A stretch of 64,000 bases of DNA from Escherichia coli (GTDB lineage: Bacteria > Pseudomonadota > Gammaproteobacteria > Enterobacterales > Enterobacteriaceae), in NCBI RefSeq assembly GCF_003334335.1, contig NZ_QOWQ01000017.1; one strand, given 5' to 3'. The notes beneath the pieces were generated by a model. It saw only the letters and a list, made by a program, of their open reading frames with translations. It was not told where the DNA came from and made no database searches. Shown here piece after piece: positions 39,796 through 63,157 of this stretch. The translations under genes and the position numbers were made by a program. Position 1 is the first letter of the stretch, and every line of letters begins with the position of its first letter.

Positions 39796-40884
39796 ATGCC
39801 TCACAATCCTATCCGCGTGGTCGTCGGCCCGGCTAACTACTTTTCACATCCAGGAAGTTTCAATCACCTGCACGATTTTTTCACTGATGAACAACTTTCT
39901 CGCGCGGTGTGGATCTACGGCAAACGCGCCATTGCTGCGGCGCAAACCAAACTTCCGCCAGCGTTTGGACTGCCAGGGGCAAAGCATATTTTGTTTCGCG
40001 GTCATTGCAGCGAAAGCGATGTACAACAACTGGCGGCTGAGTCCGGTGACGACCGCAGCGTGGTGATTGGCGTCGGTGGCGGTGCACTGCTCGACACCGC
40101 GAAAGCCCTCGCCCGCCGTCTCGGTCTGCCGTTTGTTGCCGTTCCGACGATCGCCGCCACCTGCGCCGCCTGGACACCGCTCTCCGTCTGGTATAATGAT
40201 GCCGGACAGGCGCTGCATTATGAGATTTTCGACGACGCCAATTTTATGGTGCTGGTGGAACCGGAGATTATCCTCAATGCACCGCAACAATATCTGCTGG
40301 CGGGGATCGGTGACACGCTGGCGAAATGGTATGAAGCGGTGGTGCTGGCTCCGCAACCAGAAACGTTGCCGCTAACCGTGCGACTGGGGATCAATAATGC
40401 GCAAGCCATTCGCGACGTCTTGTTAAACAGTAGCGAACAGGCGCTGAGCGATCAGCAAAATCAACAGTTAACGCAATCATTTTGCGATGTGGTGGATGCT
40501 ATTATTGCTGGTGGTGGGATGGTTGGTGGTCTGGGCGATCGTTTTACGCGTGTGGCGGCAGCTCATGCCGTGCATAACGGTCTGACCGTGCTGCCGCAAA
40601 CCGAGAAGTTTCTCCACGGCACCAAAGTCGCCTACGGAATTCTGGTGCAAAGCGCCTTGCTGGGTCAGGATGATGTGCTGGCGCAATTAACTGGAGCGTA
40701 TCAGCGTTTTCATCTGCCGACTACACTGGCGGAGCTGGAAGTGGATATCAATAATCAGGCGGAGATCGACAAAGTGATTGCCCACACCCTGCGTCCGGTG
40801 GAGTCCATTCATTACCTGCCAGTCACGCTGACACCAGATACGTTGCGTGCAGCGTTCAAAAAAGTGGAATCGTTTAAAGCCTGA
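39796..40884 (+). CDS. ybdH: Glycerol-dehydrogenase-family hydroxycarboxylate dehydrogenase
   Basis: 362-aa ORF, iron-containing ADH family (GVGGGALLDTAKA). Confidence 0.88.
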   Translation: MPHNPIRVVVGPANYFSHPGSFNHLHDFFTDEQLSRAVWIYGKRAIAAAQTKLPPAFGLPGAKHILFRGHCSESDVQQLAAESGDDRSVVIGVGGGALLDTAKALARRLGLPFVAVPTIAATCAAWTPLSVWYNDAGQALHYEIFDDANFMVLVEPEIILNAPQQYLLAGIGDTLAKWYEAVVLAPQPETLPLTVRLGINNAQAIRDVLLNSSEQALSDQQNQQLTQSFCDVVDAIIAGGGMVGGLGDRFTRVAAAHAVHNGLTVLPQTEKFLHGTKVAYGILVQSALLGQDDVLAQLTGAYQRFHLPTTLAELEVDINNQAEIDKVIAHTLRPVESIHYLPVTLTPDTLRAAFKKVESFKA

Positions 40885-40893
40885 CGTACAAAT

Positions 40894-41091
40894 TTAGCAG
40901 CAGCGCGCGCCGCCTTTTCCACCGTAGCGCGCGTCCTGCCGCTCACGGAAAAACTCTTCGTAGGTCATCGGCGTTTGATCGGGATGGTTAACCCGCATAT
41001 GTTCGACATAGTTGTCGTAATCAGGCATACCAATCATCAGCTTCGCCGCCTGACCTAAATATTTTCCGGCTTTTGCCAGTGAATCAAACAT
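40894..41091 (-). CDS. ybdD: Small DUF466 protein encoded downstream of cstA
   Basis: 65-aa [35 protein letters not shown]... Confidence 0.85.
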
Positions 41092-41124
41092 CTTGGCCTC
41101 CGCTAACCATGTTGCTGAAAGAGT

Positions 41125-41159
41125 GCCGGATGCGGCGTGAACGCCTTATCCGGCCTACA
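41125..41159. repeat. REP (repetitive extragenic palindromic) element
   Basis: GCCGGATGCGGCGTGAACGCCTTATCCGGCCTACA, the same sequence as at 63059. Confidence 0.85.
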
Positions 41160-41184
41160 AATGCTATCAACGCGCTCGGTCAGT

Positions 41185-41235
41185 CCCCTCGCCCCACCGG
41201 GGAGAGGGTTAGGGTGAGAGGGAACCCTGGGCACT
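41185..41235. repeat. GC-rich intergenic repeat (box C-like), copy 1
   Basis: cccctcgccccaccggggagagggttagggtgagaggg; near-identical to the units at 48594-48633 and 48658-48699. Confidence 0.6.
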
Positions 41236-41273
41236 AAGCCAACATTCGCCAACATCCCCCCCTCACTCTGACT

Positions 41274-43379
41274 TTAGTGTGCGCCTTTTGCCTGCGCCAC
41301 GATCTCCTCGACATTTTCCGGCATTGGTTCATACGGCGTTTCTTTCGCCGTTGGCTTCGGATCTTTCAATGCCGCAAGTGCCGTCTTAATCGAGAACAGT
41401 GCCAGAACCACCACGACCACCATAAAGAAGATGGTTAACCCGGCATCCAGACGGTTGTTGAACACCAGTTGCGCCAGCTGTGACTCAGTATACTGCGACG
41501 GAATATTGCCGCTGTCGATCATTGCCTGGAACTTATTAGCAATGGCCAGGAAGCCGACTTTCGCATCCGGGCTAAACGCTTTCTGCCAGCCTGCGGTCAG
41601 GGTACAAATCAGCAGCCAGGCCGTTGGTACCAGCGCCACCCAGGCGTAACGTTGACGTTTCATCTTGAACAACACCACGGCACAGAGCATCAGCGCCATC
41701 CCTGCCAGCATCTGGTTGGCAATACCAAACAGCGGCCACAGAGTGTTAATGCCGCCCAGCGGATCGACCACGCCCTGATGGAGGAAGTAGCCCCACGCCA
41801 GTACGCACAGCGCTGTTGCCAGCAGGTTAGCAGGCAGTGAATCGGTCCGCTTCAGGCCAGGAGACACCACGCCCAGCAGATCCTGCAACATAAAGCGCGC
41901 AGCACGCGTACCTGCATCCACCGCCGTCAGAATAAACAGTGCTTCAAACAAAATGGCGAAGTGATACCAGAACGCCACATCCATCATGCCGCCCAGCGCG
42001 CCGTGCAGAATGTAGGCCATCCCCACCGCCAGCGTCGGCGCACCGCCCGCACGGGAAATGATCGACTGTTCACCCACTTCGCTGGCAATCTGGTTTAGCG
42101 TATCTGGTGTAATGCTAAAGCCCCAGCTACTCACCACCTGCGCGGCAGAAGCGACCACATCCGCCGTCCCTGCCGGAGCCAGCACCGCCATCGGGCTGTT
42201 CATGGCAAAATACACGCCCGGATCGATGATACAGGCGGAAACCAGCGCCATAATCGCCACGAAGGATTCCATTAACATCCCACCGTAGCCGATAAAGCAC
42301 GCCTGCCCTTCGTTCGCCAGCATCTTCGGCGTGGTCCCAGAAGAGATCAGCGCATGGAAGCCAGACACCGCGCCACAGGCGATGGTGATAAACAGGAACG
42401 GGAACAGGTTACCGGTCCATACCGGGCCAGTGCCATCGACAAATTTGGTCAGCGCAGGCATGGTCAGCGTCGGGCGCATAATCAAAATGCCTACCGCCAG
42501 ACCGACGATAGTCCCGATTTTCAGGAAGGTAGAGAGGTAGTCACGCGGGGCCAGCAGTAACCACACCGGCAGCACCGCCGCCACAAAACCGTAACCCACC
42601 AGCATCCAGGTCAACTGCACGCCGGTAAAGTCAAAGTACGGTGCCCAGGTCGGACTTTCTGCCACCCAGCCGCCAGAGATAATGGCGAAAATCAGGAATA
42701 CCAGACCGATGACCGACACTTCGCCAATACGCCCCGGACGCAGATAGCGCAGGTAGATCCCCATAAACAGCGCCAGCGGAATGGTGAACGCAACGGTATA
42801 TGTTCCCCACGGGCTATGAGTCAGGGCTTTCACCACGATCATCGCCAGCACTGCAAGGATAATGACCATGATCATAAAGCAGGCCACCAGCGCAATCACC
42901 CCGGCGGTTGGCCCCATCTCTTCTTTGACCAGCTCACCCAGCGAGCGACCGTCACGGCGCGTAGAAACAAACAGCACCATGAAATCCTGCACCGCACCGG
43001 CGAGAACCACCCCAGCGAGCAGCCAGATCATCCCCGGCAGGTAGCCCATTTGCGCCGCCAGTACCGGCCCCACCAGCGGACCTGCTCCGGCAATGGCCGC
43101 AAAATGGTGACCGAACAGCACTTTCTTGTCCGTCGGCACATAGTCCAGCCCGTCGTTATGGCGCACCGCTGGCGTCATACGCGTCGGGTCAACCGCCAGC
43201 ACATTTTTGGCGATATACAGCCCATAAAAACGGTAAGCGATCAGATAGATACAGACCGACGCCACCACAATCCACAGCGCGTTGATCTGTTCCCCACGAT
43301 TTAAAGCAATGTATCCCAGAGCAAATGCTCCCATTACAGAGAGCACTGTCCAGACGAGGTATTTCCCTGATTTGTTCAT
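41274..43379 (-). CDS. cstA: Carbon starvation protein A (CstA-family peptide/pyruvate transporter)
   Basis: 701-aa polytopic membrane ORF, recognised. Confidence 0.95.
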   Translation of the reverse strand: MNKSGKYLVWTVLSVMGAFALGYIALNRGEQINALWIVVASVCIYLIAYRFYGLYIAKNVLAVDPTRMTPAVRHNDGLDYVPTDKKVLFGHHFAAIAGAGPLVGPVLAAQMGYLPGMIWLLAGVVLAGAVQDFMVLFVSTRRDGRSLGELVKEEMGPTAGVIALVACFMIMVIILAVLAMIVVKALTHSPWGTYTVAFTIPLALFMGIYLRYLRPGRIGEVSVIGLVFLIFAIISGGWVAESPTWAPYFDFTGVQLTWMLVGYGFVAAVLPVWLLLAPRDYLSTFLKIGTIVGLAVGILIMRPTLTMPALTKFVDGTGPVWTGNLFPFLFITIACGAVSGFHALISSGTTPKMLANEGQACFIGYGGMLMESFVAIMALVSACIIDPGVYFAMNSPMAVLAPAGTADVVASAAQVVSSWGFSITPDTLNQIASEVGEQSIISRAGGAPTLAVGMAYILHGALGGMMDVAFWYHFAILFEALFILTAVDAGTRAARFMLQDLLGVVSPGLKRTDSLPANLLATALCVLAWGYFLHQGVVDPLGGINTLWPLFGIANQMLAGMALMLCAVVLFKMKRQRYAWVALVPTAWLLICTLTAGWQKAFSPDAKVGFLAIANKFQAMIDSGNIPSQYTESQLAQLVFNNRLDAGLTIFFMVVVVVLALFSIKTALAALKDPKPTAKETPYEPMPENVEEIVAQAKGAH

Positions 43380-48593: not shown

Positions 48594-48699
48594 GCCCCCT
48601 CTCCCTTCCAGGGTGAGGGCTGGGGTGAGGGTTAATGTTCGCACCAGTGCTGGCTGTTCCCCTCACCCTAACCCTCTCCCCAAAGGGGCGAGGGGACGG
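48594..48699. repeat. Inverted pair of GC-rich box C-like repeats forming a long palindrome in the fepB 5' leader
   Basis: Unit 48594-48633 (gccccctctcccttccagggtgagggctggggtgagggtt) and unit 48658-48699 in opposite orientation, separated by about 24 nt. Confidence 0.7.
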
Positions 48700-63058: not shown

Positions 63059-63157
63059 GCCGGATGCGGCGTGAACGCCTTATCCGGCCTACAAAAATCT
63101 TGCCAATTCAATATATTGCAGGACCATGTAGGCCTGATAAGCGTAGCGCATCAGGCA
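63059..63157. repeat. BIME: two REP elements in inverted orientation downstream of fepA
   Basis: GCCGGATGCGGCGTGAACGCCTTATCCGGCCTACA at 63059-63093 and tgtaggcctgataagcgtagcgcatcaggca at 63127-63157. Confidence 0.85.

Follow-up and report, generated by a model that had tools for sequence, protein, structure and literature searches.

The small protein encoded directly behind the pyruvate transporter gene cstA is probably a functional partner of that transporter: the evidence, taken together, favours a role for YbdD as a protein, a cytoplasmic accessory or regulator that CstA needs for full activity in vivo, with the two repeats between the genes as dispersed elements occupying a permissive site. 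The locus lies in a window of 64,000 nucleotides of Escherichia coli DNA (the whole stretch that was analysed), and its features are collected in Table 1. As the original prediction had described, a 701-aa CstA-family ORF is followed by a co-oriented 65-aa DUF466 ORF, an arrangement confirmed by the ORF listing, by Pfam and NCBIfam, and by the annotation of MG1655; the 182-nt spacing given for the two is exact (41092-41273). Both ORFs are on the minus strand, which the original prediction did not mention.

Table 1. Features of the cstA-ybdD locus, in window coordinates.
Feature	Position	Strand	Basis
ybdD, 65 aa, DUF466 (YbdD/YjiX family)	40894..41091	-	ORF listing, Pfam PF04328
Shine-Dalgarno GGAGG of ybdD, 5 nt before the ATG	41097..41101	-	Sequence reading; invariant columns in all E. 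coli gap variants aligned
REP element, palindrome 41125-41154, ending 22 nt before the ATG of ybdD	41114..41158	-	Inverted repeat; second copy; naRNA4
BoxC/TMECO-like GC-rich dispersed repeat	41163..41240	.	Copy number; comparison with published consensus
Stretch of about 33 nt immediately following the stop codon of cstA	41241..41273	-	Invariant in all six aligned E. coli gap variants
cstA, 701 aa, pyruvate/H+ symporter, CstA family (TC 2.A.114)	41274..43379	-	ORF listing, Pfam, NCBIfam, MG1655 RefSeq annotation; transport from PMC7730263 and PMC5847655

The assignment of CstA to its family rests on full-length profile matches above a curated cutoff. The protein aligns through residues 33-596 with the complete model of Pfam PF02554 (positions 1-560 of 560; E = 7e-257), and over residues 1-701 with the NCBIfam equivalog for the pyruvate/proton symporter, NF011590, at 1583 bits (cutoff 1188). 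Furthermore, over 2901 nt the cstA-ybdD stretch shows 100% identity to E. coli K-12 MG1655, in which both genes are annotated, and is thus the same locus, without any difference, as the constitutive pyruvate uptake system (b0598-b4512) studied by Hwang et al. in 2018. CstA is a pyruvate/H+ symporter (PMC7730263), and proton-coupled pyruvate uptake by the very same protein was also described in PMC5847655. A profile search for diverse relatives of CstA returned almost exclusively Providencia sequences, at 88-89% identity, and a sequence search of solved structures gave no match for either CstA or YbdD.

The second element of the original prediction, that a transporter followed by a small protein is a conserved pairing, holds up well when co-occurrence is counted. 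A CstA-family gene was found immediately upstream of the DUF466 gene, in the same orientation, at 75 of the 82 loci that could be evaluated; at the other seven no cstA lay within 5 kb, and six of these belong to Gilliamella. In the window, ybdD likewise stands directly downstream of its CstA-family gene, with the gap of 182 nt, whereas the median gap outside Escherichia is 56 nt, and overlapping genes are frequent there. In metagenomic homologues that are 40-47% identical, the cstA and DUF466 genes overlap or are separated by 3 nt, which suggests translational coupling. The pairing itself adds nothing new, as it has already been published: in three bacteria, DUF466 genes show cofitness with cstA-like genes, and C. 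basilensis requires DUF466 to grow on pyruvate (10.1101/072470).

The original prediction also held that the role of the small partner was not settled, and suggested measuring transport in the presence and absence of ybdD. As regards mechanism this statement stands, but as regards function it is out of date, since that experiment has been published: deletion of ybdD reduces pyruvate uptake to 20% of the wild-type level, confers resistance to 3-fluoropyruvate, and is not additive with deletion of cstA (PMC5847655, Hwang 2018). A triple transporter mutant regains growth on pyruvate with plasmid-borne cstA alone; because this mutant presumably retains chromosomal ybdD and yjiX, the rescue leaves the need for YbdD undecided.

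YbdD is matched as a whole protein by Pfam PF04328 (Sel_put/DUF466), with an E-value of 1.8e-30 over model positions 2-61 of 61. The predicted protein is soluble and has three helices: the AlphaFold2 model (pLDDT 82) contains helices at residues 2-19, 25-35 and 44-56, followed by a flexible, Gly-rich tail of low pLDDT that ends in Arg-Cys-Cys, and the sequence has a GRAVY of -0.80 with no 19-aa hydrophobic window and no transmembrane segment. A Foldseek comparison of this model with the PDB gave no match with an E-value below 4. The family motif, G-x-P-D-Y-x-x-Y-x-x-H followed by H-P and a C-terminal Cys-Cys (or Cys-Sec), is present in full. Among 57 diverse homologues, Gly21, Tyr25, Tyr28, His31, His36, Cys64 and Cys65 are invariant, and with Pro23, Asp24 and Pro37 they make up the set of positions that are invariant or at least 90% conserved. 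YbdD is 72-100% identical across the gamma-, alpha- and epsilonproteobacteria, and this identity, together with the invariant residues, argues for selection on YbdD as a protein; judging from this conservation, the selection is purifying and very strong.

The C-terminal residues also link YbdD to the KCU-star selenoproteins of Campylobacter and Helicobacter (NF033934), which share with it both the Pfam family and the position of the reactive residues at the C-terminus. However, the selenoproteins end in Cys-Sec, whereas the 3' end of ybdD reads CGC TGC TGC TAA and encodes Arg-Cys-Cys rather than the Lys-Cys-Sec, with UGA and a SECIS element, that defines KCU-star proteins, and YbdD scores only 70 bits against the NF033934 cutoff of 85. 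In C. jejuni the homologue is translated, and its amount rises as stationary phase approaches. Vicinal Cys-Cys or Cys-Sec pairs at the C-terminus act as swinging arms in mercuric reductase (MerA) and thioredoxin reductase. By analogy, the tail of YbdD might similarly present a putative reactive dithiol, or a selenylsulfide in its relatives, at the end of a flexible arm, although neither enzyme is related to YbdD in sequence or fold. The Sec variant of the DUF466 family, and its comparison with thioredoxin reductase, were described in PMC4607533.

As noted in PMC5847655, cstA-ybdD resembles other loci in which a small gene adjoins, and is co-expressed with, the gene for a monocarboxylate transporter, namely yjcH-actP in E. 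coli, mctB-mctC in Corynebacterium and PftAB in Bacillus. Yet the products of mctB and yjcH are small membrane proteins (PMC5847655), whereas YbdD has no membrane segment; and unlike accessories of this type, ybdD lies downstream of its transporter gene and its product carries the invariant C-terminal cysteine pair. A closer counterpart is btsT-yjiX, the paralogous locus of an inducible pyruvate/H+ symporter in E. coli, in which a CstA-family transporter gene again precedes a DUF466 gene on the same strand. BtsT is about 62% identical to CstA (63% in the protein alignment), and YjiX is 73-75% identical to YbdD. The two loci differ in their spacing and in what follows: btsT and yjiX are separated by 49 nt and yjiA begins 10 nt after yjiX, whereas ybdD instead meets the convergent gene hcxA 9 bp away.

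Together, these observations are consistent with a mechanism in which YbdD would be made from the same locus as CstA, from its own strong ribosome-binding site, and would then, as a protein, serve CstA as the accessory or regulator that it needs to be fully active in vivo. YbdD would most likely bind the transporter on its cytoplasmic side, and the flexible Cys-Cys tail (Cys-Sec in Campylobacterales) may serve as a reactive element that either senses redox state or binds metal. The two gap repeats, REP and BoxC-like, would have landed in a permissive site and, where a strain carries them, would at most adjust the expression ratio of cstA to ybdD. No test of a physical interaction between CstA and YbdD was found in the literature. 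In an AlphaFold2 model of a CstA-(GGGGS)6-YbdD fusion, built from 13 paired rows plus unpaired rows with only 16 CstA sequences and yielding no inter-residue error map, YbdD gained no confidence: in its N-terminal helix the values dropped from 78/81 to 40/59, and its tail stayed at 56-57, with CstA itself at a mean pLDDT of 72.8 and below 50 at residues 308-353. As there is no contact or error map, this result gives no support for docking but does not refute it.

Both repeats named in the original prediction are real. The REP palindrome has 14-nt arms of 86% complementarity, an identical 34-mer copy stands at 63059-63092 (0 copies expected by chance), and the element matches Rfam naRNA4 at 38 bits, which is below the gathering score. 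Per E. coli genome, queries containing it match a median of 35-39 places, and it thus has the properties of a REP: an imperfect, extragenic palindrome of about 35 nt with many copies per genome. The GC-rich repeat is similarly dispersed, occurring at 13 places in the median E. coli genome, and contains a BoxC/TMECO-like triplex-type motif, CCCTCGCCC-CACCG-GGGAGAGGG-TTA-GGGTGAGAGGG, at 41186-41222 on the plus strand, antisense to the mRNA. It agrees with the published BoxC/TMECO blocks one, two and the start of the third, after which there is a 2-nt insertion. The strict BoxC/PIT/TMECO triplex pattern (CCCTC[GT]CCC, N3-6, GGGNGAGGG, N3, GGGNGAGGG; PMC4666352) is absent from the gap but has two canonical copies at 48597-48694, and a version of it with a shortened third block matches 41186-41218. 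Because its third block reads GGGTGAGAGGG, the gap repeat is, on sequence comparison, a degenerate relative of BoxC/TMECO and not a canonical member. A 50-codon ORF that spans the gap (41103-41255) was rejected as a gene, as it consists of the repeats and shrinks to 3 codons wherever these are missing.

Two alternative explanations concern the repeats and the ybdD phenotype. The repeats could form a regulatory device that sets a low YbdD:CstA ratio, by stabilising the cstA mRNA and acting as a partial barrier for ybdD, and both the position of the REP hairpin, 11 nt upstream of the ybdD Shine-Dalgarno sequence, and the presence of both repeats in three quarters of E. coli genomes would fit some regulatory role. 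However, while 4071 of 5426 complete E. coli genomes have a K-12-like gap, 1189 (about 22%) lack both repeats and some others carry only one of them, the natural gaps in E. coli including lengths of 182, 142, 127 and 112 nt; gaps in other genera are short or non-existent, that of the paralogous btsT-yjiX is 49 nt long, the fold energy of the gap is unexceptional (z = -1.15), and BoxC/PIT elements had neither promoter nor terminator activity in earlier work, as summarised in PMC4666352, where they are instead linked to local genomic variability. We therefore regard such a device as highly improbable, and the suggestion in the original prediction that the repeats tune differential expression is unsupported as a feature of the pair. 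Since they are dispersed, are missing from about 22% of genomes, and leave YbdD identical in all five of the gap-variant strains examined, the REP and BoxC-like elements are not integral to cstA-ybdD: they are strain-variable, junk-like insertions, which can be ignored in the design of constructs because natural strains lack them. It is also very unlikely that a cis effect accounts for the ybdD phenotype of E. coli, with the deletion changing the cstA transcript at its 3' end, CstA expression falling as a result, and the YbdD protein being dispensable. No complementation was reported in PMC5847655, and the genes appear to share a transcript, as a scan of the gap found neither a sigma-70-like promoter nor an intrinsic terminator, with overall counts no higher than in shuffled sequence; REP elements, moreover, are known to affect the stability of upstream mRNA. 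Yet the REP and BoxC-like elements lie upstream of ybdD and would survive its deletion, three other bacteria show cofitness between transposon insertions in DUF466 genes and cstA-like genes, and the 72-100% identity of a 65-aa protein across proteobacterial classes, with its invariant residues, points to selection on the protein itself.

A further alternative concerns the partner that YbdD serves, and arises from a new lead suggested by the DUF466 loci, namely that the operon frequently continues into a gene for a YjiA-like COG0523 GTPase. Such a gene, full-length and with an intact P-loop and CxCC motif, lies directly downstream in 39 of 87 DUF466 loci, and in E. coli it completes the three-gene arrangement btsT-yjiX-yjiA. 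In the window there is no cstA-DUF466-COG0523 module, hcxA being the gene that comes after ybdD, and given the GTPase continuation elsewhere, E. coli cstA-ybdD looks, from gene order, like a trimmed three-gene module. YbdD might then mainly serve a metal-chaperone GTPase of the YjiA type, as a Cys/His metal or redox client or as an adaptor, with an indirect effect on pyruvate uptake and with the adjacency to cstA explained by the whole three-gene set being a starvation module. Besides the frequency of the GTPase gene and the btsT-yjiX-yjiA cluster, this would be in keeping with the six Gilliamella loci, which have DUF466 and the GTPase but no cstA nearby, with the invariance of His31, His36, Cys64 and Cys65, and with S. 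Typhi yehUT mutants, in which all three genes drop together (PMC3875573). Nevertheless, a GTPase gene is missing from the cstA-ybdD locus of K-12, and deletion of ybdD there is as strong as deletion of cstA and non-additive with it; adjacency to CstA (75/82) is more constant than adjacency to the GTPase (39/87); and deletion of yjiA had no phenotype under 14 chelators (PMC10763504). We thus consider it unlikely that a GTPase is the principal partner. Quite improbable, too, is a combined scheme in which DUF466 is a Cys-Cys/Cys-Sec swinging-arm switch whose tail has its metal or redox state loaded or reset by the GTPase, through His31, His36, Cys64 and Cys65, and in turn gates the transporter, with an ancestral three-gene module from which E. 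coli cstA-ybdD lost the GTPase.

The preferred reading therefore remains that of YbdD as a partner of CstA. Pyruvate uptake through CstA and BtsT is relevant to overflow metabolism, to chemotaxis and to the intracellular growth of Salmonella, and partners of the YbdD type are among the most conserved bacterial microproteins still without a mechanism. Should the swinging-arm scheme prove true, the orphan GTPase YjiA would gain a client, and pyruvate scavenging would be tied to metal or redox status.

The cstA and ybdD reading frames lie on the minus strand with 182 nt between them (41092-41273), and the pair is flanked by entH upstream and by a convergent hcxA downstream. A 2901-nt stretch spanning both genes is 100% identical in E. 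coli K-12 MG1655, and likewise in many other strains; at the matching MG1655 stretch, RefSeq names the genes cstA (pyruvate/proton symporter CstA) and ybdD (YbdD/YjiX family protein). The large protein belongs to the CstA family (Pfam PF02554, E 7e-257) and exceeds the cutoff of the NCBIfam CstA equivalog (1583 bits, cutoff 1188), while the small protein is a Sel_put/DUF466 member (PF04328, E 1.8e-30). YbdD does not reach the NCBIfam KCU-star selenoprotein model (70 bits, cutoff 85), as expected, since ybdD ends in TGC TGC TAA and thus encodes a terminal Cys-Cys instead of Cys-Sec. The original prediction agrees with the ORF list, the sequence, Pfam and NCBIfam in the positions and lengths of the two genes, the distance between them, their shared orientation and the names of their families. 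The stop codons of ybdD (minus) and hcxA (plus) are 9 bp apart (40884-40896), which leaves no room for terminators between them, and the two transcripts must therefore overlap; the ybdD/hcxA pair appears among the excludons in PMC12288877.

Features of the cstA-ybdD region and repeat copies elsewhere in the window
Feature	Position	Strand	Remark
cstA	41274-43379	minus	701-codon ORF (ORF list and raw sequence)
ybdD	40894-41091	minus	65-codon ORF (ORF list and raw sequence)
REP palindrome, 14-nt arms	41125-41154		in cstA-ybdD gap; inverted-repeat search
GC-rich BoxC-like dispersed repeat	41163-41240		in cstA-ybdD gap; median 13 places per E. coli genome
Exact 34-nt copy of gap REP	63059-63092		chance expectation, none
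Canonical BoxC/TMECO copy	48597-48631	plus	sequence of TMECO 8 (PMC4666352)
Canonical BoxC/TMECO copy	48660-48694	minus	sequence of TMECO 7 (PMC4666352)

A scan with a DUF466 alignment, taking one genome per species, gave 80 loci, and exact-protein look-ups of metagenomic homologues (40-47% identical) added 7 more, for a total of 87. Upstream sequence of 400 nt or more was available at 82 loci; at 75 of them a CstA-family gene lies directly upstream on the same strand, a co-occurrence count that bears out the predicted conserved pairing. The median gap in these 75 loci of other taxa is 56 nt, and many gene pairs are 1-26 nt apart or overlapping. In distant homologues, the cstA-like and DUF466 genes overlap by 4-8 nt or are separated by 3 nt, a spacing that suggests translational coupling there. 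No CstA-family gene was found within 5 kb at 7 DUF466 loci, six from Gilliamella (L042, L049, L056, L057, L062, L064) and one from Moellerella (L069), whose DUF466 genes share 75-85% identity with ybdD. The Gilliamella copies lie between a divergent murA and a COG0523 GTPase gene, and the orphan copy of Moellerella has an EamA-type exporter gene on one side and efp on the other.

Published genetics places both genes in pyruvate transport. A transposon screen for 3-fluoropyruvate resistance yielded cstA as well as ybdD, and pyruvate uptake fell to 13%, 20% and 25% of wild type upon deletion of cstA, ybdD and both genes, respectively (Hwang et al. 2018, PMC5847655). Hwang et al., who make no mention of complementation of the deletions, concluded that a single constitutive system for pyruvate transport is made up of CstA and YbdD, and stated that a direct interaction has yet to be tested, with two-hybrid analysis as one option. 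For DUF466, the preprint of Price et al. (10.1101/072470) draws on cofitness with cstA-like genes in three bacteria and on a pyruvate-specific phenotype in C. basilensis. A study that nowhere mentions ybdD characterized CstA itself as a symporter of pyruvate and H+ under the control of CRP, Fis and CsrA (Gasperotti et al. 2020, PMC7730263). The statement that the role of the small partner is unsettled is thus half right, because the genetics, including a transport assay with and without ybdD, has been published (PMC5847655), but the mechanism and physical contact have not.

YbdD is a soluble protein (GRAVY -0.80, zero hydrophobic 19-residue windows) that is 72-100% identical across gamma-, alpha- and epsilon-proteobacteria, which is extreme conservation for 65 residues. 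Residues G21, Y25, Y28, H31, H36, C64 and C65 are invariant in the family-wide alignment, and conservation reaches 90% or more at P23, D24, P37, F47 and R55. An AlphaFold2 model from a 57-sequence alignment (mean pLDDT 82) places helices at 2-19 (amphipathic), 25-35 and 44-56, followed by a Gly-rich tail (57-65) modelled with low confidence; Foldseek returned no similar solved fold for this model, and no solved structure matching CstA or YbdD by sequence was found. We infer that the two histidines, together with the Cys-Cys that ends the flexible tail, could fit a metal site or else a redox-active arm. The homologues from Campylobacterales end in Cys-Sec (Cravedi et al. 2015, PMC4607533; 2022 preprint 10.1101/2022.07.06.499078), and this points to a redox or soft-metal function for the final residue. 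In C. jejuni, the homologue Cj0916c is translated, and its level rises towards stationary phase.

Docking was investigated with AlphaFold2 on a CstA-(GGGGS)6-DUF466 fusion, using 13 paired fusions plus unpaired homologues, the CstA sequences numbering only 16 and being 59-88% identical to E. coli CstA. CstA itself was only moderately predicted in the fusion (mean pLDDT 72.8, pTM 0.73). With these 16 CstA sequences and an output holding no inter-residue error, YbdD gained no confidence relative to the protein alone: pLDDT was 40 against 78 over the first ten residues of its N-terminal helix, 59 against 81 over the second ten, and 57 against 56 over the C-terminal tail. The fusion model thus lends no support to a CstA-YbdD complex, yet does not refute one.

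The gap between the genes holds two repeats, which the original prediction proposed might modulate differential expression. Rfam naRNA4, which derives from REP elements, matches the gap REP at 38 bits, under its gathering score of 59.5. The core of the BoxC-like element, CCCTCGCCC-CACCG-GGGAGAGGG-TTA-GGGTGAGAGGG (plus strand, 41186-41222), agrees with the BoxC/PIT/TMECO intrastrand-triplex motif (PMC4666352) in blocks 1 and 2 and the start of block 3. The strict published TMECO pattern matches both canonical copies, which form an inverted pair, and misses the gap site because block 3 there carries a 2-nt insertion; with block 3 shortened, the pattern matches all three sites. Read along the mRNA, the REP hairpin stops 22 nt short of the ybdD ATG and 11 nt short of its GGAGG Shine-Dalgarno sequence. 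The gap as a whole has an unexceptional predicted folding energy (z = -1.15), and a consensus scan of the gap found neither a sigma-70-like promoter nor an intrinsic terminator. A 50-codon ATG ORF (41103-41255, minus) spans both repeats, follows a G-run Shine-Dalgarno-like site and terminates 11 nt ahead of the ybdD start; since it is reduced to 3 codons where the repeats are missing, it was rejected as a gene and is their by-product.

Each gap architecture was queried against 5426 complete E. coli genomes and counted where at least 80% of the query was covered, a criterion that causes slight overlap between the classes. The K-12-like arrangement with both repeats (182 nt, 181 in O157) occurs in 4071 genomes, REP alone (127 nt) in 268, the BoxC-like element alone (142 nt) in 484 and neither (112 nt) in 1189. 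In an alignment of six gap variants each repeat is cleanly present or absent, while about 33 nt after the cstA stop and the ybdD Shine-Dalgarno sequence and start are constant; YbdD is identical (WP_000460431.1) in 5/5 variant strains retrieved. The segment directly 3' of the cstA stop (41241-41273, AAAGTCAGAGTGAGGGGGG...) is the same in all six, and everything downstream varies. Strains 1410D004 and 25POL (L002:440-470, L003:440-470), which have neither repeat, carry another short hairpin at the same gap position, GCCCTC-N9-GAGGGC followed by ATTTGT, which may be ancestral or may be a further small insert. Earlier work, summarized in PMC4666352, found neither promoter nor terminator activity for BoxC/PIT elements; PMC4666352 itself ties them to local sequence variability, which the strain variation at this gap fits. 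With both repeats absent from 1189 of 5426 genomes, and shorter gaps elsewhere, the idea that repeat regulation belongs to the system is not supported: the repeats are not part of it, and modulation by them cannot define the pair. REP elements are mRNA stabilizers, and modulation of the cstA:ybdD ratio is for this reason possible in carrier strains.

A GTPase gene also frequently accompanies the family. At 39 of the 87 DUF466 loci, the next downstream gene on the same strand encodes a full-length YjiA-like COG0523 GTPase with its P-loop (GFLG[AS]GKT) and CxCC metal-binding motif intact (L019, L026, L029, L037, L039, L042, L047-L050, L052-L058, L061, L062, L064, L066, L068, L070-L086). The taxa of these loci include Pseudomonas, Aeromonas, Edwardsiella, Orbaceae and Gilliamella, Wohlfahrtiimonas, Sulfurospirillum, Plasticicumulans, a Hyphomicrobiales MAG and a few Enterobacteriaceae. 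Each of the six Gilliamella loci lacking cstA retains both DUF466 and the GTPase (6/6), the gap being 18 nt in L049. Three database proteins (P0189, P0197, P0229) start as DUF466 and frameshift into the N-terminal P-loop of a YjiA-like GTPase (...LLTGFLGAGK...); they are artefacts of assembly or gene calling, but independently show the tight spacing of the two genes.

In E. coli K-12, this arrangement occurs solely at the paralogous locus btsT-49 nt-yjiX-10 nt-yjiA (L087:3910-5080), where the first gap is 49 nt, in contrast to 182 nt at cstA-ybdD, and where the GTPase gene absent from the window's pair is present. All three genes drop in S. Typhi yehUT mutants (-6.5, -4.0 and -2.3 log2; PMC3875573). 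Since the GTPase is common at DUF466 loci and in K-12 is confined to the paralogue, cstA-ybdD looks, from gene order, like a shortened form of a three-gene module. A search for papers naming both yjiA and yjiX, which did not include the key YjiA papers, found only a genome announcement, and we do not claim novelty for the link.

The best explanation is that YbdD is a cytoplasmic accessory or regulatory partner, co-expressed with CstA and needed for full pyruvate uptake, an accessory role that we regard as fairly probable; its Cys-Cys tail is likely the reactive element, with a chemistry that is speculative. The cstA-ybdD pairing was already known, and the only mildly novel element is the frequent link between DUF466 and COG0523 GTPase genes.
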